From an uncultured virus (IMG/VR IMGVR_UViG_3300049043_000106) (Duplodnaviria > Heunggongvirae > Uroviricota > Caudoviricetes), in IMG/VR virus record IMGVR_UViG_3300049043_000106: DNA of 33,930 bases. The stretch is one strand, 5' to 3'. Shown in pieces: positions 60-21,846 of this stretch; positions within the stretch are counted from its first letter, which is position 1; every line of letters starts with the position of its first letter. The position numbers and the translations under genes are program-made. Below the pieces are notes generated by a model. That model was not told where the DNA came from and searched no databases. It saw nothing but the letters and a program-made list of their open reading frames with translations.

Positions 60-1930
60 CCTATCCCACCTACGAGAAACTTGCCAGAGAATTACAAGAC
101 AGACTTTGCCTTCTATTGATTAGAGGCTATCTTGAAGGTATGTAAGAGGGTGGTGGTCAGTGACACACGTGGATTCCACCACCTCCAAAAAGGCAAGCCA
201 AGCCCCAGCAGTGCACTACCGCCAAGGCATTCACGGTCATGGGTCTCATAATTCTACTCAGGACTAAGGATCCGTGACTAGGCCATTGGCTTGCCATCTT
301 GAGTCAAGATGCCACCAAGGGCAAACTCTGAAGCGTCACACTCCACCGTGAACGGCTTAGAGAATCCTGCATTGCCAGAGGAGGAGAGGTCAAAGCAGCT
401 CTTTTAGTTTGTCAAAGGACTCTGGCCCTCCCGCGCCCACTCAAAGGCCACGTTGTCCTTGGTGAGACGGGTCAGCCCCAGCCTACGCAGCCCGTTACTA
501 TAGTCCTTGATAAACTTCCTGAAATAATTGGTCAAACCCAAAAAGGACCGCACATTGTCCTTGGGCCGTGGCCATTCCTTGGACCACTCGTGTTCTCCGG
601 GGTCGGCCTTCAGTCCGTCCTTGGAAACCACATGACCAAGATAGCTCACTTCATATTGGAGAAGAACTTAAGCACTTCTAGGGTTGACAAACAACTTGTT
701 CTCCCTAAGACCCTGGAGGACCTTGCGAAGGTGATCCATGTTCATCCTCTGCCCTAATGAAGATGATAATGTCATCCAGGTAGACGAGGCAAAAGTCCCC
801 AATGAACGGTCCGCAAAACATCGTTCATGAAGTTCAGGAACACGGGAAGAGCATTGGTGAGCCCAAAAGGCATCACTGTGTACTCAGTGTCGAACGGGGT
901 ATTGAAGGCGGTCTTCAGGAATATCAGATTCCTTGAAGCCTTATCCTGGTGGTAACCCGACTTCAAGTCCGGTGTTGAAAACACCTTACGCAGAGCCAAG
1001 AGTATCCAACAGGTCATTCAATCCTTGGGTAAAGGATACTTGTTCCTGATCGTGACCTTACTCAAGACCGACGAGCTAGTCCACGCACATCCGGAGAGAG
1101 CCATCCTTCTTAACAACAAAGAGGAGGGGCTCCATACGGAGACGTGCTGGATGTACTCTGCAATTAACCAAGTTCTGTAACTTGGTCATGACATTCCAGC
1201 TTCTCTCGAGGCGAGAGCCGGGTGCGGGTCTATACGGTGTCCCTGTTGACCGGGGACCTTAGGGCAGACCTCATGGGGTTCCCTTATAGGCAGGAAACTC
1301 ATCAGGGAGGTCCTTAGTGATCACGTCACTGGAGCTCTGTCCGCAGTGGCTCTTGACGTGCCGGTGACGAAGACTTCAAGCTGGGCCGTCACCTCAGACA
1401 CCTCCTTGACATGGCACACAATCATGTGTCGTGTCTGCTTGAGAGCATTGACAAACTTCTTGGCAGGACAACGGACATCGTGCCGAGAGGCCCGCTTCTT
1501 AGCAAGAGCCGAATCAAGCCGGATGATGTGTCGCTTCTCACCCTTAATCAAGGTGACGGTGGCCGAACACGTAATTGAGGATGGCTTTTTATTTTGACAA
1601 GCGCCATGATTCTGGCCCAGCAACAGGTCAAAGTGGGACCCCGGGTCCACGCCTGTCACCGCTGACTTTGCTCTTAAACTTTTTCACGACAATGCGTGAC
1701 GGTGGGTCTCGCCCCAGTTGCGGAGGCGGAGCTGTACCGTTCTCCCCATTCCGTCTTAGCCCGGGTACAACTGAATGGACAAGCCCATGTCAATGGCAAG
1801 CCTTTTGTTGATGAGGCACTCCCCATCAAAGGCAGTGTCCAGGGATTCCGGAGGCTTTAAGTGCGGCCACCCGAGCATGTGTTCCCGAGACCGTGGCAGG
1901 CAAGATTAAACAGCAGATTGTTGTTCAAGG
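60..1930 (-). CDS. pol: Ty3/Gypsy pol fragment (aspartic protease - reverse transcriptase - RNase H), frameshifted, runs off the window start
   Basis: Minus-strand motifs in Gypsy order: protease LDTAF (~1820-1835) and FDLLLG (~1617-1635); RT SPYGAP..LFVVKKDGSLRMCVD (~1078-1145), IRNKYPLP (~1027-1050), DLKSGYHQ (~945-968), MPFGLTNA (~851-875), LVYLDDIII (~763-790), YLGHVVS, VRSFLGLTNYFRKFIKDYS; RNase H FTVECDASEFALGGILTQDG (~293-352). Confidence 0.95.
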
Positions 1931-2620
1931 CCGCGATCTCCTGGGGAAGGCTGTGACGGGTCTCTTGCCATCAACATAAACAGCCGTGGCCCAAGTGTGG
2001 CCAAGCACTTTCTTTCCGCTGTGCCCATCAGGTCGAGATAGCATGCCAGATCTTAGAACCACAGGGAAACTCTTTGATCTTGTCAAAACCTTCTACCATG
2101 GAGGCCCAGGGACCGCCGGCAGGCGCTCCCGACAGGGTAGGACAAAGATCCCGGCGAGGCCTGAGATACAACTCCTTCCTTGATCATGATAGTGTTTTAG
2201 GTAGGCCTCTATGGTTGTGTTATGCTGCGGGTGGACAGAACCAGACACATTTACCGTTGAGGTCTTCGTTCAAGAACCCATCATTACAGGATGTCTTCGT
2301 CAATGCACACTCAACATCCGGTGCTGCAGTTCGAGGTTGGGCTCAAGACCAGCCATCTTACAAAGATGTTCAACCTGATCAAGCACTAAGAGCTTAGTCC
2401 AACCATCGGCAGAACAGGGGCTCATCACTGAGCAACGTCCAAGTCATTCTGGCAGAGATCTTTCAGAGCTTTGGGGACTTCGACTTCTCTGTCCTTGCCC
2501 TTCTCTCTGTGACACTGCAAAACAGAGGAGATGAGGATCAGCGAGGAGGAGGAGAGGGCAGTGCGACGGTAGATGCCTTGAGAGGACTTACTCTTCAAGA
2601 TTCTCCACTCAGGCCACTGT
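1930..2620 (-). CDS. gag: Probable gag of the minus-strand Gypsy element (frameshifted)
   Basis: Directly upstream of the protease on the same strand and of similar composition; a GHTW motif near 1995-2005 may be a degraded zinc knuckle. Boundaries are uncertain. Confidence 0.55.
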
Positions 2621-3216
2621 GGCCTCCTTTTCCGCAGTAAGTGCAGGACTTTGAAACATACACGCACGGGCGTGTATAAGCTGCAACACACGAGAAACAC
2701 TAGAAAACGTAAGAAGGGTCCTCAAAGCCCTCCGACGCCACAGAGCTCGGCGCCATGCCTGGCACCAACGCCACGACCAGGCGCCGAGGGAGGTAACTGC
2801 CGGCGGTTACCTCCTCGGTGGGCACCTCCACCCCGAGATCCTCGAATGATGGATCCGGGGCGGGTCACGATAGGCCATCAGGTCTATCGTCGACCCACCG
2901 GTGCAGGTCCACGGATGAACACCGATGGACCGCCGCTGGGAACCACCGGGCTGGTTCTCGAAGTACTACCACTCAGTGCGAGTAGTACCGGAGATGGTCA
3001 CCGCCATGAGGTCCCGGTTGAACCCGGCAAACCCCATGGTTGCGCCGCTACGGCGCACCCCCTTTGCCGGTATATTGAACTGGGGGGCCATCCCTGGCCC
3101 TCGCCCTTGGTACTACCGGGGGTTTAACTTAACCAAGATCTCGTGTGGCCTAACACGGACCTTGGTGTGCTCCGTTTGGGTGTGCTAAGTCCAAACGTCA
3201 CACATGATGCAGGTAA

Positions 3217-3875
3217 TTAGCTACCAGGGGTATGTATAAACACATACCAATACCCCTGATGAGACTTTCGCATTATTGGCCTTGTCAATGTCGGCCTTGG
3301 TAATGTCCGCACCATCCTTGCTCTTTTCAGGCGGCGGGATCCAGGGCTCTTTAGGCTTTTTGCCACGGGAATCCTTAGCCTTTTTCTGCTCGGGTGCATC
3401 GTCAGAAGCGACCCTTGCGTTTCTCGTCCTCCTCGTGACGGGGTTTCTCATGCCGGTCAGGCTGATACCACCAAGTTCCTTCTTCCACGCTTGCGCGGCG
3501 TGGCCCGTGTTGGCATAGTAGCGAGTCTGCACACGGTCTCGGCCACTTCCATCAAGAGCTGTGCCCACTCTGTCCAAGTGCCCATACAGCTGGTGCCTTC
3601 CAGGCTGGACTTCGAACTGCCGCTGTTCCTCAAGCCCGGATAATGAAGTCGCAGCACTTGTGTGATGTCATTGGGCCTGGTGAGCCGGATCAGGGTGGTT
3701 GAGCCAAGTCCTGGAGCCGGTCGCCAGATGTTCATCATAGCCATCTTCAAGTCTTGGTCATCTTCAAAGTCTTCGAATTGGTCAGCAGTGCATGAGCACT
3801 TTTGGCCTTCTTGAAGGAACCCAGCAAAGCATTTGTAACGAGTCAGCAATATGGGGCATGCACTAATATACAATG
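3217..3875 (-). CDS. Possible frameshifted hypothetical ORF with a Lys-rich C-terminal part
   Basis: Overlapping minus ORFs 3457-3909 and 3221-3577 read as protein-like (FEDFEDDQDLK; APEQKKAKDSRGKKPKEPWIPPPEK). No family recognised. Confidence 0.3.
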
Positions 3876-3877
3876 AA

Positions 3878-3924
3878 AGCAATACGTCCATAGGTAATTG
3901 AACGAACACTCAGTTAAGATAGCT
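3878..3924. other. Possible internal nanopore adapter remnant (read-concatenation point)
   Basis: AGCAATACGT (3878-3887) and TAATTGAACGAA (3895-3906) resemble adapter AGCAATACGTAACTGAACGAA with a 7-nt insert; TCAGTTAAGATAGCT (3910-3924) resembles the opposite adapter strand TCAGTTACGTATTGCT. AT content rises right after it. Confidence 0.45.
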
Positions 3925-4117
3925 ATAACACGACGAGGAGGATTATGAATATATCGTATGACATACTATGAGATAATTAAATATATAATTAATTGGGAGA
4001 TTAATTGAGATGATATTCCTCAATTACATATGCCATAGCCATATCGTGAGATCCTATGTATGACATAAGGTAAGTATGAACCTAACACGAAGCTATGAAG
4101 AACCTAGTTAGGGATAA

Positions 4118-4165
4118 CCTAAGGATTACCCTAGGATTACCCCTCGATTATGCCTTGATTATGCA
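4118..4165. repeat. Short degenerate ~11-bp tandem repeat (CCTnnGATTAy), 4 copies
   Basis: cctaaggattac / cctaggattac / ccctcgattat / gccttgattat. Confidence 0.55.
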
Positions 4166-4345
4166 ATAACCTACCTTCTATTCCTGAGCACCACATGGTC
4201 TCACAACTTTAAATAGTACCCTTGGAGCCGGCTGGATTTGAAGGGTGTTTACCTCGCCAGAGGGCCCAAGGGGCCGCAGGGTGCCCTTCCAAGTCAAGGT
4301 TGGTCAAGGCTGACAAGTCCTAGACATTGACCCTTGAGTTTTCAA

Positions 4346-4625
4346 TGTCATAGGCATGCACATGCCTTGTTTCTGCTAATGCAGATGGCATGGACTAGGC
4401 ATGAAGCCCAAGTGCAAGGCACTAAGTGCATGTGCAAGTGTATCTAAGCCAAGCTACGCTAAAGACCTGGAGACTGTGTAAATACAAGGGGAAACTCTGC
4501 CTCTCTGAGCACTCGACTATAGCTAAGTAAAATCGCTTCCGCTCCTGGTGATTCGCAAGGGCAGCGTTTCATTGCGAAAAGTCGGGCCTTAGGTCAAGCC
4601 GCAAACAAAGGCGAAGGCGCTGACA
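4346..4625 (+). repeat. 5' LTR of Gypsy element 2 (280 bp)
   Basis: Starts TGTCA (4346-4350) and ends TGACA (4621-4625), a perfect terminal inverted repeat. Contains a TATA-like TGTAAATA (~4477) and is followed 3 nt later by a PBS-like site and then gag. No 3' LTR is present to confirm it. Confidence 0.7.
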
Positions 4626-4628
4626 GCG

Positions 4629-4640
4629 TGGTTTCGAGCC
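4629..4640 (+). promoter_or_regulatory. Primer-binding site (tRNA-iMet-like)
   Basis: TGGTTTCGAGCC just after the LTR end; two differences from the plant iMet PBS TGGTATCAGAGCC. Confidence 0.6.
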
Positions 4641-4708
4641 GAATCCCTGGGTTACACAGCATAGAAAACGACCCCAGACATCCTAGAATTCGTTTTGTGG
4701 TCGACGAC

Positions 4709-5990
4709 ATGGCTTCAAAGACGTATAAGAGTGCTGAGCCTTATCCTGGAAGCGCCTCGAATGGCAAGTCCAGGCGTTGCTTTCAGGAGAAACGAGCATT
4801 GGAAGTTGGTCTGTCCAAGAACGCTGAGAAGGCTCCTGAAAGGAATCGTGAGGCCTGGAACACCCCACAAATCCAGACGTCGGATCCTCCTGCTAGAGAG
4901 GCAACGTACTTCTCGATGAGAACCAGAATCCTGCTAACCCCAGAACCTGACGACCGGTGATTCAAGATTGACCAGCCATGTCTCGGAGAGATTGGTGGAA
5001 AGCGGGAGGAGTCCAAAGGTGGGGAAGTACTATCAGCCTGCCCAAGGTGATGGACAAGCCGGGCCAGCCCTGGGAGAGCTCAGAGCTTGGATTGAAGCTC
5101 TCAGGACCTACGTGCCCAATGTGAAAGCTTGGGTACTATGGGTTTGGAGAAGTTCTTGGAAGGAAGGATGAAGGGCCATATCAAGCGGATCACTGAGAAG
5201 CAAGTGGCTAAGCTGAAGGCAGCAGGAACCTTCCAAGAGAACTTGGACTGAATCGTCAGAATCTGGTGCCAAGCGGTTTGGACTGGATGATGATGATGAT
5301 GCACGGCCCGGAAAAGCTCAGGAGCTGAGTTTCAATGGAGGAAGCCCAGCTCAGAGTTCATGGTGAAGATCGAGGCTATCTTTGATGAGATGGTTAAGGA
5401 TCCATTGTCTCCGAGAGTAAGGTGCAGAAGCTTCTTCAATTGTGTGAAGATTCCTTCCTTGGTTCAAGCTGTGGAAGTACAATCCCACTACTGGAAGACC
5501 ATGGACTGGTGACACTCAGTGGGATGAGCTCTATGATTTTATCATGGAGAGGTATGGCACTACCACGTGGACGAGAAGGGACAGGAGAGATCTGGTGTCG
5601 ACAGACACCTTGAGAAGAAGAGAGCTCGAGAAGCTCCTGGTGGGACCGGTGGATCCGACTCCAACCCCACTCCTTCCAACCCTCAGGGTTTCCAGAACAA
5701 GAAGTTCAAGGATGGAAAGGGAGGAGCTGTCCCTCGCGGAGCGAATCCGAAGAAGCCACAGGCCCAGGGCCATGGCGCAGGACCACTCCAAAGGAGCCCA
5801 GGGGCAGGAGGCCGGAGGAGAGGAAGCCCTTCAAGATTCCCCTGGAGAGTGCCAGGCCTTCTACAAAGCCAGGAACCTGGACTTCAGGGTGTGGAGAGCC
5901 CTTTGGCCCCGGCCACGAGCTCGGGAAGTGCACGAAGAAACCTGCGTTTCCCAAGGATCTCCAAGCTCACCTCAAGAAGCAGATCTTTGA
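4709..5990 (+). CDS. gag: Gag (frameshifted) with C-terminal zinc knuckle
   Basis: ATG at 4709 after the PBS; purine-rich coding strand; knuckle (D)FRCGEPFGPGHELGKC at ~5880-5931, read across one indel. Confidence 0.75.
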
Positions 5991-6309
5991 CTTCAACAAG
6001 AAGAAGTGACTCCTTGGGGAGTGTCTCAGCATGGAGTGTGGCTTGCTCACTGAAATCTGAAGGTGACCTGCCTAGTTTGGATTCTGAGGATGAAGAGCGT
6101 GGGGCGACCCAGTCTGCCGGATATCCGAAGAGACCAAGCGTAGCTCTCAATGTAGTGACACTCCATATCCCCATGGTGGAGAGCCACCAGAACCCGAGGA
6201 TAGTGATGAGGATCCGCCCTAACTTGATGGAGGAGTCAGGACTGAGGAAGAGGAGCAGGAGATGGTGAAGCCCCCTGTGAGTGAGCTAGGTGGACCCAGA
6301 GCTCGCAGG

Positions 6310-6735
6310 AAGCTGAAGAACTCGGAAGGAGAGGCACTGCAGGCAATGGTGCCCCACAAGTTCACCCTGGAGGCTTGCGCTGATGATGCAGGGAAGAACA
6401 GAGTGTTTAGAGAGATACCCTTCTGTTCCCCTGCCCAATCCTTCTTGGAGAGGGATGTGTTGGAGAGCATGTGTATTGCAACCCACCTTTCAGGACCCGG
6501 TGCCTTTCTTGGCCCACATCAACCAGGTGCTATGAGGAGGCACCCACAGGACCTACTGCTCTAGTGATTCTTCCCGGTTGAATAGGGGAGACTCCTCAAA
6601 GACCAGACTGCAAGGATGGCAGGTACTCAGGACCTATCCCAGGAGGAGTAAGATCTTTGAGCAGGAAGTGGATGGGAAGTACCAACCCATGGGAGGAACC
6701 CCCTGGCCAAGTCAGGTTTGGTACAAGGCACCCAT
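6310..6735 (+). CDS. Dam-like DNA N6-adenine methyltransferase domain inside the Gypsy polyprotein
   Basis: FTLEACADDAGKN (6361-6399, motif I-like), FCSPAQSFL, then after a 1-nt slip GEHVYCNPPFR (NPPF at 6480-6491, catalytic motif IV), ALVILP, and TPWPSQVW. Confidence 0.8.
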
Positions 6736-6769
6736 GCCAGAGAGACACTTCTTTGGTGACACGGGTCAT

Positions 6770-7170
6770 CCTACCTTTATCTGCAAGGGTAGTGTAGCCA
6801 ACACCCGCGGCGGTGGGTCTTCTCCATGAGAAAGTGGAGGTGGGAGCAGAAGGTGATGATAGGATCTCTGAAGAAGGTCCTGCTGGACATGGAGCCACAG
6901 ACTCCTTTGTCAATCCCAAGTGGTTACGTCAGAGCTGGATACTCCATGGAAGTCCTGAAGCCGGCCAACCATGTGGTGAAGCTAGCCAATGGACAGGAGG
7001 AGCCGTGAAGGGTCTCATCAGGTTGCCTTTGAAGATTGGACGGTACAAGGGCACAGTGAAGCTCTTTGTATTGGACATAGGTGACTATGATGTTATCCTT
7101 GGAGACCAGTGGCTGAGGGAGAACAAGGCCTACATTGACTATGCCAACAAGTCATGTCCTGAGGAGAGGT
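6770..7170 (+). CDS. pol: Retropepsin-like aspartic protease of Gypsy element 2
   Basis: VLLD(T)GATDSFV (~6877-6911, one base missing), VKLANG, and DIGDYDVILGDQWL. Confidence 0.9.
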
Positions 7171-7489
7171 AGCACAGAGATGGGTGATCAGGCCTTACAC
7201 CTACAAGGAGCCAAGTCCTAAGGTACAGGGCCCCTAGAAGCTTCTCTCGAATGGCTCGAGGTCAAGAGGCTTTTGCCTAAGGCCAAGCAGGTGTATTGGG
7301 TGATTGTCAGTGACGGACAGACTCAATGTCTGCCAGCTTGGAGGATTAGGTGTGGACCTCAGTAAGCTTGAGGAGGTGGAAGGATGCGGAGACACGAGGA
7401 CCCGGCGGAGGAGACTCTGACGTCTTCCGGTCCAATTCCGCATTGGAATCCATGAAGCAGGCTAGTTCTGCCTGATACAAATCCCCGGA

Positions 7490-7661
7490 GGAAGGAGCCG
7501 ATGCCGACGCCGTTGTAGTAGCGGGCGATCGCCACCCAGTCCGCCGCAGCAAACTGGGTGGCCGGATCTCGCGCGCGCGCCATGTACGCGTCGCGCGCCT
7601 CGAACGCCCGCATGGCTATTGCGACGCAGAGCAGGGGGTAGGGCAGGGTGCTGGTGCTCAT
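7490..7661 (-). CDS. Small phage hypothetical protein, truncated at the junction
   Basis: GGAGG RBS; ATG at 7661 overlaps the upstream stop (ATGA); GC-rich codon usage. Confidence 0.55.
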
Positions 7662-8059
7662 GGCGCCACCTCCGGCATCTTCAGGTTATGGCGCTGGGCG
7701 AACCGCTCCGCCTGCGCACGGGTAGACGACACGCTCGACCCACGGCACCGGCGAGGCGGTTGCCTGCAGCCGGGAGGGACCAGCAGATCCGGCAGTGGCC
7801 GGGACTCGAGTTGGCAGCCTTGAGCGGCGTATGGCGAGGGCGCTCATCGCGCCACCTACCCGGCCCTCAATGGCCGCGTCCAGATTCGTCAGAGGGGTAA
7901 GACGAGAGCCGCTGCGATAGGCCACTGGTGACAGTGCGCCATGTCGACGACCTGCACGACTCCTCTGGCAGTGCCTCATCGAGTTCGGCGATGCGCCCAG
8001 AGGCGGAGGGCCGTCGCTGCGCTACGGCATGTCGCCAGCCGGTCAGACGGCGCGCTCAT
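7658..8059 (-). CDS. Two small translationally coupled phage hypothetical genes (8059-7844 and 7847-7658), frameshifted
   Basis: ATGA start/stop overlaps at 8056-8059, 7844-7847 and 7658-7661. Confidence 0.45.
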
Positions 8060-8370
8060 CGCGCACACCACCTTGACCGTGGCCTTGCGGACGCTGATCT
8101 CGCACGTTGCCGTCGATCCACTGCTGGGTCACGCCCAGCCGCGAGCAGCCGGGCCTTGGCGGCCGCGACGTCGAAAGTGCTGACCAGCGTCTCGTCGGCT
8201 ACGCTGGCGCGGAAGAGCGCGCCCTCGTAGGCGCCCTTGCCCTGCGCCCGGAGCGACTCAGCGATCTGGTCGGCCTCGCGCTCGAGGTCGGCAATCTGGG
8301 CCTTGAGAGCACCGAGGCGATCGACCGGGTGCTGGGCGGGGAACTGGAGGACGTTGACTGCTGCGTTCAT
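8056..8370 (-). CDS. Phage hypothetical protein (MNAAVNVLQFPAQHPVDRLGALKAQIADLE...)
   Basis: GGAG RBS before ATG 8370, coiled-coil N-terminus, first gene after a leftward promoter. Confidence 0.75.
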   Translation of the reverse strand: MNAAVNVLQFPAQHPVDRLGALKAQIADLEREADQIAESLRAQGKGAYEGALFRASVADETLVSTFDVAAAKARLLAAGRDPAVDRRQRARSASARPRSRWCAR

Positions 8371-8409
8371 GATGATCTCCGATGACTGATTGGTTGCTCG
8401 ACGATGGAG

Positions 8410-8501
8410 AGTCTGAGGGAAGTTCCTGCCGGTGTCAACACTTTCGATGAAAAAAGTTTTTTCGCGAAATGTGTTGACGCGACAATCGGTTGTGATAGGC
8501 T
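8410..8501. promoter_or_regulatory. Back-to-back sigma70-type promoters
   Basis: Minus strand: TTGACA (8438-8433)-17 nt-CAGACT. Plus strand: TTGACG (8474-8479)-16 nt-TAGGCT. An A/T tract lies between them, and genes diverge on both sides. Confidence 0.7.
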
Positions 8502-8539
8502 TTGATCGTCGAGTCATTCATTACGTATCGGAGATCACC

Positions 8540-8855
8540 ATGAACATCTTTACCGCCTACGACGCCCGCCGCCAGAAGCAGCACATGGACGCAGTTCGTG
8601 AAGCGCGCCGTCATTGCCGAACTCGAAGCGTTTGTGCTTCAGCACCACAACAGCCGCAGAGACGATGCCCCGAAGCGAGTTAAGGCTTCGGCGGAGGCTG
8701 GCGGCCACACCGTCCGCGCCGTTGCCACCCGGGCCGACTGTCGCTCCGTTTCAAGGGGCGCCCTGCGCAAACCCCACTACACCGTGCGGTGGTACCTTGA
8801 CGACCGGGTCGTCTCGCGCGCAAATCTGATCAAGGCGCTCGAGGTGGCAGCATGA
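8540..8855 (+). CDS. Phage early hypothetical protein (one frameshift)
   Basis: GGAG RBS and ATG 8540 (MNIFTAYDARR), joining the 8598-8855 frame; ATGA overlap with the next gene. Confidence 0.7.
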
Positions 8856-9099
8856 AAAGCATCTCGATCCAGATCGCCGAACACTTCGGCTGCGACATCA
8901 ACGACATCAAACCCTACCACTATCAGCCGGGCCGATGGACCCGAAAGGTCTACGCCGGCATGGACGGCAACCGCTACTGGTCGGCAGGCGGCGCGACCCC
9001 GCCGAGACACCGCGACGGCGACGACGATCTCGTCTGGCGTCGCGTCAAATCGAACTGGTTGGGCAACCCAACCTCTGGGTCGGCGAGGTGGCATCATGA
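8852..9099 (+). CDS. Phage hypothetical protein (MKSISIQIAEHFGCDINDIKPYHYQPGRW...)
   Basis: GAGG RBS and ATGA overlaps at both ends; the ORF track reads past the end because of an indel near 9073. Confidence 0.7.
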
Positions 9100-9287
9100 G
9101 CGCCCAGCACAAGGTCGACATCTTCGAGGCGTTCGACATGGACTTCTCCACCCTCAAGCCCGGCGCGCCGTACTGGCGTGGGGCCATCCGCCTCGGCAGC
9201 AGGACCTTGGCGCGCACCCGCCGGCACAACACTCGCAAGGCCGCCGAGCGCGAGGCCAAGGCGCTCCTGAAGCAACTCCAGCCCTGA
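9096..9287 (+). CDS. Phage hypothetical protein, 63 aa
   Basis: Intact ORF, GAGG RBS, coupled to the previous gene. Confidence 0.75.
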   Translation: MSAQHKVDIFEAFDMDFSTLKPGAPYWRGAIRLGSRTLARTRRHNTRKAAEREAKALLKQLQP

Positions 9288-9381
9288 GCATGGGGCGCCG
9301 GTAGGCATCTGCCGGCCCAGCGCGATGCGTCCGCGCCTTCCGCAACCCGCGCCTGCCGGGTCGACGCAAGCAGGCAACCAC

Positions 9382-9570
9382 ATGACCCGAGTCTGCCGCT
9401 CCTGCCATCAGCCGTTCGCCACCGCCGAGTCCATCCGCGTCCACCGGCGCGACTACCTCTGCCGGCCGGCCGACACCCTGCTCGCCCTCGGCTGGACCCT
9501 GACGCCTCGCGGCTGGACGCAACCCGGCGTCGCACGGTCGCCGTACAGCCGGCCGAAGCCCAAGCCCTGA
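9382..9570 (+). CDS. Small putative zinc-binding protein (CxxCH..F......HR....C.P)
   Basis: MTRVCRSCHQPFATAESIRVHRRDYLCRP; spacing resembles phage FDXHR-type zinc fingers. Confidence 0.65.
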   Translation: MTRVCRSCHQPFATAESIRVHRRDYLCRPADTLLALGWTLTPRGWTQPGVARSPYSRPKPKP

Positions 9571-10200: not shown

Positions 10201-10273
10201 GTGGATTATTGTGCGTGGGGTTTTGGGTGTAGAGGGTGTGTATGATCTGGGTTGATTGTGGTGTGGAGGTTTC

Positions 10274-10741
10274 ATGTTCAAGCGCAAGCCGAAGAAGGTA
10301 GGTCGAAAGCCGTTTGAGCCGACGATGGCGAATCGGTTATTGGTGAGGAAGTTGGCGCGTGCTGGGTGGAGTCAGGATGAGATAGCGGAGGGGATGGGTG
10401 TATCTGACGAGACGTTGAGGAAGTATTTCCGGCGTGAGTTGGACATGGGGAACATTGAGATGTGTTCGACGATTGAGAGCACGCTTTATGAGATTGCGAC
10501 GGACAAGGATCACAAGGCGTGCGTGCCTGCGGCGACTGTGTTGTTGAAGGCGAAGGGTGGTGATGAGTATCGGGAGACGAAGAGGACGGAGATCACGGGT
10601 GCGGATGGTGGTCCGTTGGAGCAGCGTATTCAGCAGGTTGACGTGATTGACTCGAGCAAGTTGTCGTTTGAGGAGAGGGACACGCTCGCGAAGATTTTGG
10701 AGGGTGCGACGGAGATCAGTGAGGAGCAGCGCGAGGATTGA
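10274..10741 (+). CDS. terS: Terminase small subunit-like HTH protein
   Basis: GGAGG RBS; GRKPFEPT and HTH WSQDEIAEGMGVSDETLRKYF; EITGADGGPL tail; directly upstream of terL. Confidence 0.8.
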   Translation: MFKRKPKKVGRKPFEPTMANRLLVRKLARAGWSQDEIAEGMGVSDETLRKYFRRELDMGNIEMCSTIESTLYEIATDKDHKACVPAATVLLKAKGGDEYRETKRTEITGADGGPLEQRIQQVDVIDSSKLSFEERDTLAKILEGATEISEEQRED

Positions 10742-12402
10742 ATCAGAGGAAGAGGGAGAGGGTGACACAGAGGAGTGATTTGGTTCGGATTGGTGGGAAG
10801 GTGATCAGCAAGAAGAAGCAGTTGCTGGACATTGACCGTGCCAATTGCGAGGACAGTCTGTATGTTTTTCTGAGATCTGCGTGGAGGTATTTGGATTCCT
10901 CGCCGTGGAAGGATGGGTGGCCGATTGAGGCTGTAGCGGAGCATTTGCAGGCGGTTGTGGATGGTGAGATCAAGAGGTTGATCATCAACATTCCGCCGCG
11001 GATGGGCAAGTCGTCGATCACGTCTGTGGCGTTGCCTGCGTGGACGTGGGCGCAGCGTGACAAGAGTCCGACGTCTGGTCCGGGCGTACAGTTTCTGCAT
11101 GCGTCGTACGGCGAATCAGTTGTCTCCTGAGGGATTCCGTGAAGTGTCGCCGGTTGATTGAGTCGGCGTGGTATCAGGAGAGGTGGGGTGATCGGTTTTC
11201 TTTGAACTCTGACCAGAACACGAAGAGTCGTTTCAGCAACGACAAGGGTGGTGAGAGGCTGATCACGTCGATTGGCGCTGCGGTGACGGGTGAGGGTGGA
11301 TCGATCATTGTGGTTGACGACCCGAACGCGGCGAACGAGGCGTTTTCCGAGGCGACGATTCAGACGACGATTGACTGGTGGGATGGGACGATGTCGACTC
11401 GTCTCAACGACCCCGAAGACGGGTGCGTACATCATCATTCAGCAGAGGCTGGCTGAGGATGACCTGACGGGTCACATTCTCTCGAAGGACGTGGGTGAGT
11501 GGACTCACCTGTGTTTGCCGATGAGGTACGAGCCTGAGCGCGCGTTCATCACGTCGATTGGGTGGAAGGACCCGCGGTCTGTGCCGAACGAACTGTTGTG
11601 GCCTGATCGGTTTGGCGAGCAGGAGACGATGCTGCTTGAGAAGCAGTTGGGGCCGTACGCGACTGCCGGGCAGTTGCAGCAGCGGCCTGAGCCTGCTGGT
11701 GGTGGTGTGATCAAGCGCGACTGGTGGCAGTTGTGGCCTGAGCAGGTTTTCCCGCCGATGGATTACATCGTGGCGTCGTTGGACACGGCGTACACGACGA
11801 AGACGATGAACGACATGTCTGCGCTGACTGTGTGGGGCGTGTTCACTGAGGACACGGTAGCGAGATCCACGCGGGTGATGGATGCGAACGGGCGGCCGAT
11901 GTACGTTGACCGGTCGTACTCGGAGAACGCGCCGAAGGTCATGCTGATGCATGCGTGGCAGATTCGGCTGGAGTTGCACGAATTGGTGGAGAAGGTTGCG
12001 GCGACGTGCCGGTCGTTGAAGGTCGACAAGTTGCTGATCGAGAACAAAGCGGCAGGAATTTCCGTCGCGCAGGAGATTCGGCGGTTGTACAACAACGAGA
12101 ATTTCTCTGTTCAGTTGCAAGATCCGAAGAGTCAGGACAAGTTGTCGAGGCTGTATTCGGTGCAGCACTTGTTTGCCGAGGGGATCATTTTCGCGCCTGA
12201 CCGGACGTGGGCTGAGATGGTGATCACGCAGGTGGGTCAGTTCCCGAAGGGCAAGCACGATGACTTGGTGGACACGGTGTCGCAGGCGTTGCGGCACATG
12301 CGTGAGTTGGGGTTGTTGGTTCGCGCGCCGGAGCGTCTGGCCGAGTTGGAGTCGATGAAGACGTACCCGGGCGGGCGGCAGGTTCCGTTGTATCCATCGT
12401 GA
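10738..12402 (+). CDS. terL: Terminase large subunit (two frameshifts, ~11125 and ~11410)
   Basis: Walker A INIPPRMGKS, Walker B IIVVDDP, QRLAEDD, QLQQRP, and nuclease motifs SLDTA, LIENKAAG, FPKGKHDDLVD. Confidence 0.97.
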
Positions 12403-12619: not shown

Positions 12620-14941
12620 ATGCCGCTCACTCCCGGACTTGGTGCCAACATTCGTCAGGTTCCGGCGGCTTTGTCCGAACCTGATCTGCCAGAGGTTGTT
12701 GTGGAGATGGCAGAGGAGGTGGGGACCTTCCTGACCTTGATGAGGCGGGCAACATCGTGCGCATTGAGCACGGTGATGGGAGTGTCACGGTATCACTCGA
12801 TGGCCGGCCGATCGAGGAGGCTGAGCGGGAGCCTCGCGGGTGGTTTGACAACCTCGTTGATGAGATAGCGCCTGCCGAAGTGAATCGGATCTGCAGCGAT
12901 CTGCTGCGTGGCATTGAGGACGACCTGCAGTCCGCAAGGACTGGATTCGAGGATCGTGCCATGGGGATCAAACTCATGGGCCTCAAGGTTGAAATTCCGG
13001 GCCTGCAGGGGGCGTCTGACGGGGCGCCTGTTGAGGGCATGAGCAAGGTTCGTCACCCTCTCTTGCTCGAGGCTGTTCTGCGGTTTCAGGCGAACGCTCG
13101 AAGCGAGTTGTTGCCGACTGACGGGCCTGTGAAGGTGCGCAACGACACGATCACCGGCGGGATTGAGACTGACCAGCAGGGTGATGCGCTCGAGAAGGAC
13201 CTGAATCACTACCTGACTGCCACGGCGACCGAGTACTACCCGGACACCGACCGCATGCTGTTGATGCTCGGGTTCGGTGGCACGTCGTTTAAGAAGGTCT
13301 ACAAGTGCCCGTTGCGCAATCGTCCGGTGTCCGAGAGCGTGGATGCTGACGATCTGATCGTGAACAACGCGGCGACCGACTTGGCGAACGCCAAGCGCGT
13401 CACGCACCGCATTTTCATGCGGCCGTCGACAGTCAAGAGGCTGCAGATTCTGGGCGTCTACAAGGACGTGAGCCTGCACACGCCGAACGCGCCGAAGTTG
13501 GATTCTCTGCAGCGCGAGGAGAAGGCTCAGCAAGGCCTGATGCCTGAGACGCAGAACCCGGAAGATCGCGACCGCGAGATCTACGAGTGCTACTGTGAAC
13601 TCGACATCTTCGGGTTCGAGCACAAGCACAAGGGCAAGATCGCGGGTCTCGAGATTCCGTACATCGTGACGATCGACGTTTCGTCGCGTCAGGTGCTCTC
13701 GATCGTGCGCAACTACGACGAGAAGACGAAGAAACTTCCTGTCGCGCGCAAGAGGTTCGTCAAGTACACGTTCGTGCCGGGCATGGGCTTCTACGACATC
13801 GGCCTGCTGCACATCTTGGGCAACACGACGAACGCAATCACCGCGGCGTGGCGCGAGTTGCTCGACGCCGGCATGTACTCGAACTTCCCGGGGTTCCTGA
13901 TGGCGGACACGGGCGCCCGGCGGAACACCGAACATCTTCCGCGTGCCCCGGGTGGCGGCGCGTTGGTGAAGACGGGTGGGCTGCCGATCTCTCAGGCCAT
14001 CATGCCGCTGCCGTATCAGCCCCTCGCAGGCCCTGATGATGCTCGTTGACAACATGGCGAGCACTGGCCAGCGGATTGGCGGCACGTCTGAGTCGATGGT
14101 CGGGGAAGGCAAGCAGGAACTCCCTGTGGGCACGGCTTTGGCGATGATCGAGCAGGCTGCCAAGGTGATGAACGCCGTCCACAAGCGCCTACACGCGGCT
14201 CAGGCTGAGGAATTCAAGTTGCTGGTCGAGTGTTTCCGTGAGAACCCGGAGGCGTTTGTCGACCGAGAAGTGCCCAAGCCGGCAGCCATGGACTGAGGAG
14301 ATCTTCCTGCAGGCCCTGCAGAACTGCGAACTGGTGCCGCAGGCTGACCCGAACACGGCCTCGCATGCTCAGCGTCTGGTCAAGATCATGGCGCTGAAAG
14401 AACTGCGAGCGGCGGATCGGTCGATGTACGACCCGATCGCGATCGACACGGCCGCTCTCAAGGCGATTGGCTGGAACAACCCTCAGCAGTTCCTCGCGCC
14501 GCCGTCTGCGCAGGGCAAGCCGCCGCCGGAACTGCAGAAGGTCATCGCCGAGATGCAGATCAGAAGCAGGACGCCGATGCGCGCATGATCGAGGCGAAGG
14601 CGCATGAGGCCAAGACGCAGGCCGAGATCCAGAAGATGGGCATGGAGACGCAGCACATGGCCGCGCGCGGCCTTGCGGCCGGTGGTGAGGGCATAAGCAG
14701 GTCGACACGCCAGTCGATCGAGATGCTCGCGCAGGCCGACATCATGGACGCTCAGACTCGCGCGCAGGACGTGCAGTTGAAGGCGCAGTTCCACGCTGCC
14801 GAGGATCGCAATCGAGACCTCGACCGACAGAGTCGAGAGCGCGTTGGCCTTCTGAATCTCGCCAAGGAAGTGATGCTGCACTCGGCATCGGCTTCGGAGG
14901 CTGCCAGAGACGTCAACAAGATCAAGAGCGAGACGAAGTAG
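12620..14941 (+). CDS. Portal protein (podovirus-type, several frameshifts)
   Basis: Follows terL; HPLLLEAVLRFQANARSELLPTDGPVK, GTSFKKVY, FVPGMGFYDIGLLH, PVGTALAMIEQ, AVHKRLH, PQADPN; helical C-terminus; ~770 aa in total. Confidence 0.9.
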
Positions 14942-14944
14942 GCC

Positions 14945-17900
14945 ATGAACTTTGACCCGAAATCTGTTCGCAAGGCGTTGATGATCGCCAAGCAGTTGGC
15001 GGCGTCGGTTGACCCTGCTTTTGCGCGGATTTCTCCGCCCATGCCGCCACAGGGCGTGCCGTTAGAGCGTGCGAAGGGCGGTGAAGTTAAGAACGTCATG
15101 CCAGTAGGCAGCCCAGAGCGATCAGAAAATCTGAAGCAGTGGCTAGGCAATAGTTTTCTTCACGTCGAAGGGAATCCAAAAACGTATTACCACGGTACGT
15201 CTAAAGACAAACCGTTCACCGGATTCAAAGTCGGTCGTCATGGCGCATGGTTTACATCAGACCCGAAAGATGCGTCGATGTATGCGCAAGAAAACGACAG
15301 CATGAGCAGTCGCTATGAACGGCGATCTACACCGCAGAGCGAGCAGCATGACGCCGGTATATTAAAGGCAAGTAACCCGTTTTTGGCGAATTCCTGAGAA
15401 ATACAAAAGCGTAGAAAACCACTAAAAAGGCACAGTCTGATTGGTTTGATGAATTAAGGAAAAACGGATACGACAGTTGGATTCGTCCAAGAAGGGAATC
15501 TGGCCGTGATGCTGGAGGGTCCGCATCAAGTTAAATCTGCTATCGGCAACGTCGGTACGTTTGATCCGTCCAGCCCAGATATCGCCAAAGCAGAAGGCGG
15601 CGCAGTCGACATAGAAGGAAAACTCAACAATGAAAGACAGCAAATCAAAAATTCCAGATCACATCTTGAAACATCAACCACAGCGGAAAGATTTTCCAAC
15701 GCAGGAAGAGTACGAGGAGGCTCTGGCGTACTTCAAGCATCGATTCAAGCCGATCCTGCAGCGCCACTCACGGGATTACCAGTCGACATAGCGATTCCGC
15801 CGCCGGGCAAACTCAATAAAAGCCGGTCCCAACCCTCTTATCAGGCGAGTTGCCAGTGATTATATGCGGTCAGTAGGCCGCCCGTATCGCCCTGCTACAT
15901 CATATGTAAAAGTTTCTCCTCCTCGAGCAGCAAGAATTGCCAAGGCGTATGAGGAAATGAAGCATGACCCGCAAGATCCGCTGGTCAAGGCTCATACAAT
16001 CAAATGCTGAAAGAAACCATGATGCAATATGAAGCGGCTAAGGCGGCTGGATTCAAAGCGGAGTTTTGGAACCCGGAAACAGACAAAGATCCGTATGATT
16101 TGTCGCCGAGATTGGCAATTGAAGACATAAACAAAAATCATCACATGTTTGTGTTTCCAACTCGCGCAGGATTTGGCAGCGACGAAGACATGGTGGCTGA
16201 ATTGAAGCAAAACCCGTTGCTTGCCGACAGCGGCGAGCGGTGGAATGGACAGCCAGTAACTTACAACGACATTTTTCGCGCCGTGCATGACTATTACGGG
16301 CATGCAAAAGAAGGTGTTGGATTTCGCGCAGACGGAGAGGAAAACGCATGGCGTTCTCATGCTGCGATGTATTCCCCGCTCGCAAGGCTTGCAATGACCT
16401 CAGAAACGCGCGGTCAAAACAGTTGGGTCAACTTCGGTCCGCATGGCGAAAAAAATCGCACAGCGCGCACCGAAGATACAATTTTTGCTGATCAAAAAAC
16501 CGGAATTTTGCCGTTGTTTGCAAACCATGAAGGTGCAGAAGATTTCATAGGCCCTGATTACGTCAAGTCCATGGTCGATATCTACAATCAGCATAGGCCA
16601 GAAAGGCAGATGGTGGCGCAGTCGACGATGACGACTACATAACCGTATATCACGGAACTCCGCATCGATTTGAGTCAACTTCATCCAACTTGCTTGGTGA
16701 GTTTGATGTAGCAAGATCGGCACGGGCGAAGGTTCACAAGCCTACGGGTATGGCATGTATTTGGCTGAATCGCCAGAAGTGGCGAAAGGTTACAGGGACA
16801 GGCTTTCTAGGAATGTAACTGTTGACGGCGCAAAACTGCAAAGCATTCCGTCAGACGGGGATTTGGCAGCAGCGCATCACATGACAGTTAGAAACATTCA
16901 AAACGGAATGGCTCTGAACGCAAGCAATTGCGGCCACTCAAAAATATTGGACTGATGCCGCGAATGAAATGTTGGCATTTGCAAAAAATCACCCAGAATT
17001 TGCTGATAGGATCGGCGAAGAAGCATCAAGCAGGATGCAAATTGCAAAAGCGGCAACAACGCTAAAGCCTGAAAGTTTTTATCGAGACCCCGGTTCGTTG
17101 TACACGGTTGGACTGCACAAGGACGCAGCAAGAGACATGCTGCATTGGGATAAGCCGATAGGAGAGCAATCGGAAAAAGTTCAAAGGGTTGCGCATTCAA
17201 TCGTTCAGTCTGACTTGTGGGACGAAGACACTCGCAGACTGATGAAAGCACATGCCTCTCGAAAAATTTGAGGCGGAAAGTTTTATGAATTGCTTGGCCT
17301 GTCAGACAAATTTGCCGGACAAGGTGTTCTTGGAAACTGGCAAGCCAACGAGTTGGCAAGACGAGGCATTCCCGGCATCAAGTATTCGGATCGCGACAGT
17401 CGAGCCAGAACAAATTATGAGTTAACTCATAACTACGTTGTTTTCCCTGAGTTTGCGCATCATCTCAAAATTGTAAAACGCGAGAAAGAGGCGGTCGCGT
17501 GACAAACAACATTCAAGTTCCCGTGTTGGATCACGCAAAGTCTGTGCGCCGAGCGTTGATGATTGCAAAGGCGAGAGGTGGCGCATTAACCGGGGAGCGA
17601 GAAGATCATCCCGCATGGATTCCTCAGCGACTTGTAACTAGCAAAAGGGCTGCTCCACCATCTGCAGAAGATCGGCCTATTGTTAATCTGCAAGCACTGA
17701 AAGACTCTGGTGCTTTGTTTGATAAAAATATAAATGTAATTCGCAATTACCCAAATATCCAAGGAACATTTCGTCGTAGATCAAACGATGATGTTGCGCA
17801 ATTCTTCATAAATCACGTCAAAGACAATTTGCTTGCTTTGCATGATTCTGTTCCTGAAGAAGTCAGGAATAGGAGCAAGATGTGGTATGACGGCGCCGAA

Positions 17901-19114
17901 GTTGGTTGATGAATGGACGCAGAAATACAATCTGCCGGATCATTCGAATAGCCGCCATCATTGCGGCAATGTCTCCTGAAAGACTGGTATCTAAAACGTG
18001 TCGCTTGCACAGTGCATTCTTGATATTCATCGAGGCTATGGAGATGACTTTTACAAGAATCACAAGTTTAATGATGAGATGAAGAATCAATTCTCGTCTC
18101 GCAACAGTTTGAATGTTCCTGAGTATCAAGGAATTGTTGATTTGTTAGAAGGGAAATCGCTTGATGATTTAGACAACATGAATACGTCTGAAAGAAAGAC
18201 GCGCAACCGCTAAAGCGTTGTGGTCTCGACTTTTTGATGAGACATATCACGATCAAGGTCACAAGATTGTTACTCCAGAAGGTGATTTCGGAGATTTTGT
18301 GAAAACTCAATCTGGAGAAACGCGAAGGTTGCATGGGGATCGTTGGGCGAAATTTCAAAAGCCATTCAAGCAATAGAAGCGCAAGACGATCCGCAGATTG
18401 ATCTCTCAATTGATGGGCGAAGCGCACAAAGTACGGAATTTTTACAGCGATATTTTGTCGCCAAATTCGCGACATGATGACGTAACTATTGATACGCATG
18501 CCGTTGCTGCCGGCCTTTGGCGACCGCTTTCAGGAAGTTCCATGGAGGTCGCGCATAACTTTGGAAGTTATGCTGGAAAAGGCGTGCCCGGAGTAGGCGG
18601 ATCGGCAATCACTGGCGTTCAAGGGTTGTACCCTTTGTACGCAGAAGCGTATCGTCAGGCTGCAGAGAGCGCGGAATTCTTCCCAGAGAAATGCAATCAA
18701 TCACTTGGGAGGCAATCGCGGTCTTTTCCCGGATGCTGTTCAAAACTGCTGAAAATTCAGCAGCAATCAATAGAATCTGGAACAACTATCGGAATGGCAG
18801 AATCTGATCAGGCAGAAGCAAGGAGACTAGTACATGACTACGCGGGCGGAATCAGGCCACCAACATGGCTCATGGAAAGGACTGCTAGCGTTAATGAAGC
18901 TAACCAAAGTCCCGCTCACGCGGCACCACTTTCTCAATTTGCAGTACGCGGGGAACCCACCGGCGGAACTGACGCTGGAGCAGGAATTGCAGTTGCCCCC
19001 TCAATTTCGGCGACACCCCCGGTAATCAAAAATACTGGAGGCGCTGTCGACCGCGCTTTGCAGGTGGCATATCAAGTTGCTCCCGGTATGATGTCTCCAT
19101 ACGGCAGGAGATAA
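14945..19114 (+). CDS. Large (~1400 aa) polyvalent, probably virion-ejected protein: ART-like, metallopeptidase-like, ART-like and HhH-glycosylase-like domains (many frameshifts)
   Basis: YYHGT...GAWFTSDP...QVKSAIGNVGTFDP; FRAVHDYYGH...GEENAW...ETRGQN; VYHGTPH...KIGTGEGSQAYGYGMYLAE...GIPGIKY...NYVVF; WYDGA...AAIIAAMSP...KVRNFY...VTIDTHA. The fragments join through single indels, but more than one gene is possible. Confidence 0.7.
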
Positions 19115-20116: not shown

Positions 20117-21161
20117 ATGTCAGGACTCGCAAAGAAGGCGCGCGACGCGATGCGGAGCAAGATCTCCCGGCTGATGCGTTCCGCCGAGAAGGTTGATGCA
20201 TCCAGTTTCACGCCGGCTGAGCCGCTGAACGCTGACGTCAAGACGGGCATGCGCCCGGTTTCGCGTCGTCAGTTCAAGCGTGGCGGCAAGGTGGCCAAGA
20301 TGGAAGGCGGGGCATGCAAGCCGCGCGCTGATCGCATGGCTCGAAAGAGCGGGGGGTCTGCCAAGGCCACGCCGAACAACATCATCAATCGCGACGTGAA
20401 GGAAGCCAACGAGGAGAGGGAAGGCAAGAAGCACGTCGGCGGCATGAAGAAGGGCGGGAAAGCCGAGCATCCAGACGTTGCCAAGGACAAGGCCATCGTC
20501 GCGAAGGCGGTTCACAAGCACGAACGCGGCAAGCACCCGGGGTCGAAGTTCGACCAAACTGGCCACTGGCGGCACGCCGCCGGCGCAGAAGGCTCCGCCG
20601 CCGCCGCCTCCGCCGCCGCCGGCAGAGATGCCGGAAGACGTCGAGAACGACTACAACGCATGGAAACTGTCGCAGGAAGTGAAGCGCGAAGAGTCGGCCA
20701 AGCGCACTCCGCCGCCTCCGCCGCCGAGCAAGCGCGCGGTGGCTTGGATGGCTCCACGCAGGGCGCTCGGCCGAAGGGTGGTCGACTGGCTCGAAAGACG
20801 GCGGCCGGGCCAAGAAGAAAGGCTCGATGAACGTCGACATCATCATCGGTGGTGGTCAAGGCGGCCAGCAGGCGATGCCGCCGCGGCCGCCGATGCCGCC
20901 TGCCGGCATTCCTGTGCCCGTAGGCGTTCCGCCGCCGGGAGGTCCTCCGGGTGGTATGCCGCCGATGGGTCCGCCCCGGGCGGTATGGGTCCGATGCCTC
21001 TTGGTGGCCCGCCGGGTCCCGGTGGCATGCCGCCGATGCCGAGAAAGGCTGGCGGTCGCGTTGGGCGCCGCACGTACAAGTCGGCCTCTGACATGGATGC
21101 CGGCTCGGGCAGCGGCTTTGGCCGTCTCGAGAAGACGGAAATCCAGAAGCGCAAGCACTGA
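20117..21161 (+). CDS. Basic Lys/Arg/Gly/Pro-rich protein with repeated (K/R)xxGG motifs (frameshifted)
   Basis: AGGAG RBS; MSGLAKKARDAMRSK...PLNADVKTGMRPVSRRQFKRGGKV...MDAGSGSGFGRLEKTEIQKRKH*. Confidence 0.75.
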
Positions 21162-21167
21162 TCAACG

Positions 21168-21200
21168 TGGGCGGTTGGGAAACCTTCCGCCCATTTTTTT
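21168..21200 (+). terminator. Intrinsic terminator
   Basis: TGGGCGG...CCGCCCA stem followed by T7, just after the stop codon. Confidence 0.8.
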
Positions 21201-21226
21201 CGCGCTGAGCATTTACCGGCGTAAAT

Positions 21227-21429
21227 ATGTTCAACTTGAATCTGGCGTTTGAGAACGAACTAAGAAACTCATTGAAGAGGAGATTCATCGACTGAAAGAC
21301 AACCTAGCGAACGGGTTGAGTACTCCTGATTTTGAGTCCTACAAGAGCCAAGTTGGAAAAATTGCTGGACTGAATCACGCGCTTGAGTTGTGCGACGAAG
21401 CGCAAACAATTTTGTCAAAGAAAACCTGA
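21227..21429 (+). CDS. Small helical phage protein upstream of the GroES-like gene (one frameshift)
   Basis: MFNLNLAFENEL..LIEEEIHRLKDNLANG...DFESYKSQVGKIAGLNHALELCDE. Confidence 0.7.
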
Positions 21430-21442
21430 TGGAGATTGCATA

Positions 21443-21835
21443 ATGCATATTGCGATGGAACATGATGTTGATCCGAAGAAGACCTTGCTGAAGAAGTTGG
21501 GCAATTTGGAGAACATCGAGATCTTCAACAACCAGATTTTGTGCGCTGTGTACGTTCGACCGGAGAAAACCAAGGGCGGAATCGTTCTTTCAGAGGCATA
21601 TCGGTCTGAAGACAAGGTCCAAGGCAAGGTTGGGTTGATTGTCGCCATGGGATCGTCTGCATTTGTCGACGAGACGAACACATGGTTTGTCGATTGCGAC
21701 GTCAACCTGCACGATTGGATCATTTTTCGGCCAAGCGACGGCTGGAGCATCACTGTGAACGGCGTTTTGTGCCGAATTCTTGATGATGTCGACGTCCGCG
21801 GGCGCATCACTCATCGCGATACGCAGCGTGGTGGC
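21443..21835 (+). CDS. groES: GroES/Cpn10-like co-chaperonin
   Basis: EKTKGGIVL mobile-loop motif, GLIVAMG, DWIIF, RILDDVDV. Confidence 0.8.
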
Positions 21836-21846
21836 AGGAGAAAACC

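Follow-up and report, generated by a model that had tools for sequence, protein, structure and literature searches.

Does a long terminal repeat (LTR) retrotransposon carry an adenine methyltransferase of its own between gag and protease, and if so, to which kind of element does it belong and on what does the enzyme act? The question is raised by a short locus in the IMG/VR record IMGVR_UViG_3300049043_000106, a DNA sequence of 33,930 nucleotides (nt) from an uncultured virus assigned to the Caudoviricetes, which is referred to below, at its full length, as the window. From the letters of the window, the original prediction had described a Dam-like DNA adenine methyltransferase inside a Ty3/Gypsy element at 6310-6735. 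By identity and architecture, the segment from 4743 to about 7380 is very likely the 5' part of a chromovirus-type Ty3/Gypsy element of the DAM-LTR kind. The methyltransferase domain is part of the pol polyprotein and lies directly N-terminal to the protease. The window alone adds little, as it holds one truncated copy. The features of the segment are listed here; P0001, P0004 and P0158 are related proteins, and X1, X2 and X7 denote contigs of public sequencing runs.

4743-6009, plus strand: gag-like open reading frame 1 (ORF1), by frameshift-aware alignment to P0158, with a TGA at 6007-6009
6031-6297, plus strand: opening part of the pol open reading frame (ORF), an acidic linker with many D and E residues, aligning to residues 1-88 of P0001
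6298-6745, plus strand: Dam-like (PF05869-like) N6-adenine methyltransferase domain, by alignment to P0001, Pfam and predicted fold
6840-7172, plus strand: retroviral-type aspartic protease, by RVP_2 match and frameshift-aware alignment
7173-7380, plus strand: spacer after the protease and last stretch matching the element, by the P0004 match and the X1, X2 and X7 contigs
7381-7470, no strand: junction zone between the retroelement fragment and phage-like DNA, by the jump in G+C content and the phage genes beyond

FTLEACAD had been predicted at 6361 and is read there directly: the frame starting at 6223 gives VPHKFTLEACADDAGKNRVF with its F at 6361, and a three-frame reading of 4300-7500 gives KFTLEACADDAGKN, with the F at 6361. 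GEHVYCNPPF, with NPPF at 6480-6491, is likewise read directly, in the frame starting at 6411, which differs from that of the FTLEACAD stretch. The 1-nt slip proposed near 6460 is real and falls at about 6457 in the alignment to P0001, but it is not single: four single-base slips lie inside the domain (at about 6457, 6492, 6527 and 6579), and 15 frame-shifting single-base indels, with no stop on the aligned path, were counted over 6031-7204. The domain had been placed between a gag knuckle with an acidic linker on one side and a protease on the other. The linker was found (an acidic stretch at 6060-6290, 5' of the domain), as was the protease (RVP_2 of Pfam on 6798-7169, E 2.6e-6, its active site LLD-TGA being interrupted in the window copy by a slip at about 6889), while the knuckle was found in part only, in the non-canonical form C-X12-C-X7-H-X4-C. 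G+C content is 0.540 and 0.544 over 5001-7000, so that the domain has the composition of the rest of the element, as had been stated. The window copy of the domain is broken into frame pieces too short for a Pfam match, and the retroelement part has no match in the phage collection. The last protein-level match of the element is that of residues 400-428 of P0004 to 7225-7311. No reverse transcriptase (RT), RNase H or integrase was found 3' of the protease in the window, because the element ends at about 7380.

An intact form of this part of pol is provided by P0001, the one longer protein retrieved with the frame piece of 113 amino acids (aa) from 6223-6561. The match (E 1.2e-36, 97% identity) is far beyond chance. 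P0001 is 399 aa long, comes from a 1576-nt contig of another assembly, and holds in one open frame the acidic linker, KFTLEACADD, GEHVYCNPPF, ALVILPSW and PWPVQVWY, followed by the protease with LLDTGATDSF. The NPPF motif is in frame in this intact protein, and at the corresponding positions of the X1 and X2 contigs, from two unrelated runs, the extra bases of the window are missing. Frameshift-aware alignment of P0001 with 6031-7204 gave 360 identical codons out of 384 (93.8%). Its protease matches RVP_2 at E 5.4e-11 (residues 271-381) and, by sequence, the retroviral-like aspartic protease 1 in the PDB at E 6.8e-9. Contigs of four public runs were placed on 5400-9400 of the window; no sequencing run contains more than 0.18 of the sampled words. 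Short-read contigs of three DNA runs from different studies (labels: aquatic, wastewater and freshwater metagenome) align with all or part of 5431-7380 at an identity of 95-99%, and in three runs the stretch from gag to protease is spanned by single contigs. The RNA run X20 covers just 8467-8798, in the phage part, with nothing on the element, and is uninformative on expression. The source of the element is very likely a eukaryote common in freshwater and wastewater metagenomes.

The kind of element was determined from the relatives of P0001. A search against 1.84 billion representative proteins gave 1259 matches at E<=1e-3 and 292 at E<=1e-10, the latter counted at 50% clustering. Among 150 listed representatives, 147 have the methyltransferase, 124 the protease and 121 both; the methyltransferase stands directly before the protease in 120 of these 121, with a median gap of 23 aa. 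The representatives with this order show 26-54% identity and come from many assemblies. In the exception, P0049 (1369 aa), protease, RT and RNase H come first, and the methyltransferase occupies the C-terminal end (residues 1232-1366). Twenty long relatives show the Pfam order Dam, aspartic protease, RVT_1, RNase H, H2C2/rve integrase, SH3 and chromodomain; one and the same protein can carry Dam along with protease, RT, RNase H and integrase. RVT_1 was found in all 20, an rve or H2C2 integrase in 18 and Chromo in 16, and tyrosine recombinase families in none of the 20 at E<=1e-3. In P0002 (49% identity), the nearest relative extending past the protease, RVT_1 follows. Judged by sequence, the pol of these relatives is of the chromovirus type of Ty3/Gypsy and not of DIRS, in agreement with the original prediction. 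A locus search of metagenome contigs based on P0001 gave 189 pattern matches, none of them confirmed, and a reduced family alignment retrieved one distant locus, L001, which is 33% identical in the methyltransferase domain.

The region 5' of pol was compared with P0158, an intact ORF1 relative of 415 aa, which matches the window at 4743-6006. Of 411 codons, 359 are identical, and the reading frame of the window copy is interrupted by 18 frameshifts and by a stop at 5249. The C-terminal end of P0158 carries the C-X12-C-X7-H-X4-C arrangement and not the canonical CX2CX4HX4C. The homologue search with P0158 found only two close relatives, and an AlphaFold2 (AF2) model made from the resulting 3-sequence alignment was unusable (per-residue confidence, pLDDT, 39.9). 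ORF1 of the window ends with TGA at 6007-6009, followed by C, and the ATG of pol at 6031 lies in the same frame, 24 nt on. ORF1 of L001 has 392 codons and ends in CVKCGSKEH...C, a CX2CX4H...C motif; a single TAG follows (4252-4254, next base G), and then the Dam-protease ORF in the same frame. Since the gag-like ORF1 and pol are parted by one in-frame stop both in the window and in L001, it is suggested that Gag-Pol in the Dam-protease family is made by stop read-through rather than by frameshifting.

The family of the domain is Dam-like, though P0001 itself lies under the curated threshold of Pfam. P0001 matches Dam (PF05869) at E 0.0016 and 18.6 bits, or 20.4 bits for the domain alone. PF05869 is matched by 45 of 67 aligned relatives at E<=1e-3 (best E 9.9e-12). 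Apart from Dam, PCIF1_WW is the one methyltransferase family to appear among the 67, in a single protein, and the match of P0001 to PCIF1_WW is weak (E 0.073). Dam reaches E<=1e-3 in 11 of the 20 long relatives and exceeds the gathering score in five (31.4-35.0 bits); the profile alignment is limited to about positions 7 to 114 of 169. Residues 89-262 of P0001, which form the domain, were modelled by AF2 with a pLDDT of 91.9 and a predicted template modelling score (pTM) of 0.83. The domain is predicted to have a Rossmann methyltransferase fold of the phage Dam or PCIF1 type, so the fold called for by the original prediction is present in the model. Foldseek gave 18 matches in the PDB at E<=1e-3, and all those among the matches listed are methyltransferases, the best being PCIF1/CAPAM (E 6.4e-6, query TM-score, TMq, 0.62). 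The VIA structure search gave Z values of 10.8 for PCIF1, about 10 for Erm and KsgA, 9.7 for T4 Dam and 9.6 for E. coli Dam. Phage DNA N-6-adenine methyltransferases head the viral fold matches in BFVD (E 6.6e-9 to 1.6e-6, TMq 0.53-0.66; the best named ones from E 1.8e-8), and next come giant-virus PCIF1-type proteins (ranks 16 and 24-27). Matches in the ESM Atlas, 0.86 to a cluster with Dam on 14% of its members and 0.77 to a PCIF1_WW cluster, are weak and below the 0.9 level of a lead.

The catalytic motif [DN]PP[YFW] takes the form NPPF in both the window and P0001. The corresponding tetrapeptide in 118 aligned domains is NPPF (47), NAPF (17), NPPY (10), NPPW (4) or another (40, such as HPPF and QPPV), which makes 61 domains with canonical NPP[FYW]. 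NAPF is so frequent that it points to a lineage variant rather than to decay. The active site of PCIF1 is also NPPF.

The original prediction had warned that related domains might already be known, and this is the case. DAM-LTR retrotransposons were described by Fernandez-Moreno et al. (May 2026, bioRxiv 10.64898/2026.05.21.726589). This preprint reports 10,030 eukaryotic DAM proteins, claims the first Dam domains in LTR elements other than DIRS, distinguishes five DAM-LTR lineages, one of them chromovirus-like in green algae, derives the LTR-borne Dam domains from DIRS donors and describes an enrichment of N6-methyladenine (6mA) on DAM-LTR insertions. What defines a DAM-LTR there is a Dam domain that shares an ORF with pol domains of an LTR retrotransposon or stands beside them, an arrangement found in the ORF of P0001 and in the long relatives, and the element belongs to this described kind. 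It resembles the 'Chlorophyta DAM-chromovirus-like' DAM-LTRs, as portrayed there, in having a prokaryote-like Dam with a conserved Asn-Pro-Pro pocket inside a Ty3/Gypsy pol, and in the chromodomain of its long relatives. It differs from the DAM-LTRs of the preprint in being known from metagenome records alone. In the accessible text the position of Dam is named for one lineage, as 'flanked by integrase and RT', and the words 'protease' and 'gag' are absent. The Dam screen is given there with a cut-off of 1e-5. The Dam match of P0001 is weaker than this, so that copies like P0001 may have been missed, and the fixed order of methyltransferase and protease, following a read-through stop, may for the most part have escaped that Pfam screen.

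Other known systems share single traits with the element. DIRS1-type tyrosine-recombinase retroelements also have a small Dam-like domain inside a retroelement pol; unlike them, the relatives of P0001 combine an aspartic protease with an rve integrase and a chromodomain, a tyrosine recombinase is found in none of the 20 long ones, and the domain here is N-terminal to the protease. Phage DNA N6-adenine methyltransferases (PF05869) supply the best profile match, the best viral fold matches and the NPPF/NPPY motif, whereas the domain here sits inside a eukaryotic polyprotein and its DNA-methylating activity is only putative. The cap-specific mRNA adenosine N6-methyltransferase PCIF1/CAPAM is the closest solved structure; in contrast to the domain, it is a large cellular enzyme that methylates RNA and has WW and helical domains, and sequence identity between the two is 17-19%, with no significant sequence match. 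Gypsy-DNMT3 and SymbioLINE-DNMT (de Mendoza et al. 2018, PMC5890265) are likewise retroelements with a captured DNA-modifying enzyme domain. Their enzymes are C5-cytosine methyltransferases of another fold family, and 5-methylcytosine silences rather than permits transcription.

A candidate mechanism can be outlined from this arrangement. Translation would continue through the one in-frame stop that follows gag to yield pol, the methyltransferase would enter the virus-like particle as part of Gag-Pol, and the protease would then free it. Using S-adenosylmethionine (SAM), the enzyme would N6-methylate adenines on the products of reverse transcription (RNA:DNA hybrid or complementary DNA), and new insertions would carry 6mA and sit in transcriptionally permissive chromatin. 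Methylation of reverse-transcription products is the model proposed in bioRxiv 10.64898/2026.05.21.726589. As an exact course of events, with read-through, packaging, release and 6mA on DNA or hybrid all included, the scheme is tentative, its chances falling somewhat short of even.

Several results weigh against the reading of the locus given above, both for the element and for the enzyme. The Ty3/Gypsy assignment is made through relatives that are 43-49% identical in the methyltransferase-protease part, the window having no RT, RNase H, integrase or LTR. No direct repeats of at least 40 nt occur anywhere in the window, as is expected of a fragment without its 3' half. ORF1 matches no Pfam gag or zf-CCHC family, whether in the window, in P0158 or in L001; as the structure model is also unusable, the label 'gag' is based on position and on the CCHC-like end. 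The frame over 6010-6030 is supported by the window sequence alone. On the side of the enzyme, the Dam score of P0001 is under the Pfam gathering cut-off of 28.1 bits, and sequence searches of the PDB with the single protein and with a profile gave only protease and DDI1 matches and none for the methyltransferase part. The VIA values for PCIF1, Erm, KsgA and Dam differ from one another by no more than about 1, so that the PDB fold is that of a class I adenine-type methyltransferase and not specifically that of Dam. An RNA methyltransferase as the closest solved structure counts against a simple role as a Dam of double-stranded DNA. The canonical motif is lacking in 57 of the 118 aligned domains; catalysis is perhaps not conserved throughout the family, or many copies have decayed. 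Eukaryotic DAMs in dam-deficient E. coli produced no rise in 6mA, and a hybrid substrate is suggested by the authors, both according to bioRxiv 10.64898/2026.05.21.726589.

Three alternatives concern the DNA itself. If the window copy were a truly decayed pseudogene, the frameshifts would be real mutations of one insertion; the in-frame stop at 5249, the truncation at about 7380 and the substitutions that separate the window from other contigs (36 in 1950 nt) would fit such a history. The X1 contig (depth 35.5), however, differs from the window over 5431-7380 by 35 gaps against these 36 substitutions, and such a ratio of about 1:1, with no stop in 384 pol codons, is not the pattern of decay. 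Among the indels listed for that part, 11 of 11 one-base indels are common to X1 and X2, which come from different studies, so that the window is the deviant sequence. The unrelated phage capsid gene, 17 kb off in the window, equals this part in indel density and has no stop (10 frameshifts over 920 nt at 24163-25084, compared with the capsid protein of MW202675), and in the cases read directly the indels lie at short base runs. Decay is thus unlikely. The window is most likely unpolished long-read sequence, its frameshifts being single-base errors and the natural element intact; with this signature any ORF-based reading of the window will be fragmented. A methyltransferase derived from another element, DIRS-type or nested, and next to the protease by accident or assembly artefact, would agree with the statement in bioRxiv 10.64898/2026.05.21.726589 that before 2026 retroelement Dam-like domains were known only from DIRS, and with the probably chimeric state of the window at about 7380. 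This can hardly be upheld against the uninterrupted ORF that joins methyltransferase and protease in P0001, the missing tyrosine recombinases of the long relatives and the single contigs of three runs that cover gag through protease; the same order in 120 of 121 listed representatives excludes both nesting and accidental proximity, and the nested insertion named in the original prediction as a possible objection found no support. True adjacency of retroelement and phage genes in one genome might be supposed from the single sequence, in which neither an N nor an obvious repeat marks the join. It is very improbable, since the X1, X2 and X7 contigs match the window up to 7380 and then run on with unlike sequence, G+C content rises from 0.54 to 0.61-0.66 past the join, structural genes of Caudoviricetes (TerS, TerL, portal, capsid, tail fibre) make up the right side, and the error profile is that of raw long reads, in which chimeras occur. 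No contig of the four runs bridges 7380-7544, which by itself is no proof of a chimera, and an exact 30-mer from the junction had no match in viral contigs. The join between retroelement and phage is probably a chimeric read or a misjoin.

A further alternative concerns the substrate. The domain may be real and conserved and yet be directed at RNA (the element's own transcript or a cap-adjacent adenosine), be active on hybrids only, or be non-catalytic, binding nucleic acid or SAM. The structural proximity to PCIF1/CAPAM in both Foldseek and VIA, the weak PCIF1_WW matches of P0001 and of one relative, the giant-virus PCIF1-type proteins among the viral fold matches, the 57 domains without canonical NPP[FYW] and the negative heterologous DNA-methylation assay of the preprint, with the hybrid substrate suggested by its authors, all speak for this. 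Opposed to them are the 45 of 67 relatives that match PF05869, compared with one for PCIF1_WW, the phage DNA adenine methyltransferases as top viral fold matches, and the raised 6mA on DAM-LTR insertions in several hosts that is reported in bioRxiv 10.64898/2026.05.21.726589. The balance leaves this alternative a minor but real chance. Rather doubtful is the proposal that the pre-protease domain is a PCIF1-like N6-adenosine methyltransferase, packaged with Gag-Pol and marking its own RNA or an RNA:DNA hybrid in the particle. If true, it would explain the negative assays with double-stranded DNA and the tolerated NAPF-type variants.

Beyond the junction, 7470-33930 is tailed-phage DNA with the following features.

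10256-10738: small terminase
11287-12399: large terminase
12685-14046: portal
14942-15394: ART-PolyVal-like piece
21374-22000: GroES
24163-25084: major capsid gene, with 84% aa and 80% nt identity to MW202675
32024-32626: tail-fibre piece

Except for the capsid gene, the phage part has no close relative in the phage collection. Within its G+C content of 0.60-0.66, patches of low G+C content (0.46-0.52) were observed at 15000-19000 and 21000-22000, which could be mosaic phage modules or further misjoins. Single-base indels occur in coding regions about every 70-90 nt, as measured at 4743-7204 and 24163-25084, and three genes contain 18, 15 and 10 frameshifts with almost no stops. A second Ty3/Gypsy pol fragment, with RT and RNase H, is located at 132-1237 on the minus strand, in opposite orientation to the element. 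Its identity to the Dam-bearing relatives is 29-38%, rising over short stretches to as much as 76% with P0002, and no methyltransferase or protease was detectable upstream of it. The 3.5 kb between the two retroelement fragments (1240-4740) contain longer ORFs that have no Pfam or PHROG match, and might be where the 5' LTR and leader of the plus-strand element lie.

For the family as a whole, the order methyltransferase, then protease, is very common in environmental eukaryote DNA, and the canonical catalytic motif is retained in roughly one domain out of two. That the nearest solved structure is an RNA methyltransferase makes it all the more pressing to ask what the enzyme really acts on. Retrotransposons with an adenine methyltransferase of their own could decide how their new insertions are marked epigenetically, and this idea bears on the escape of mobile elements from silencing in protists and algae that use 6mA.

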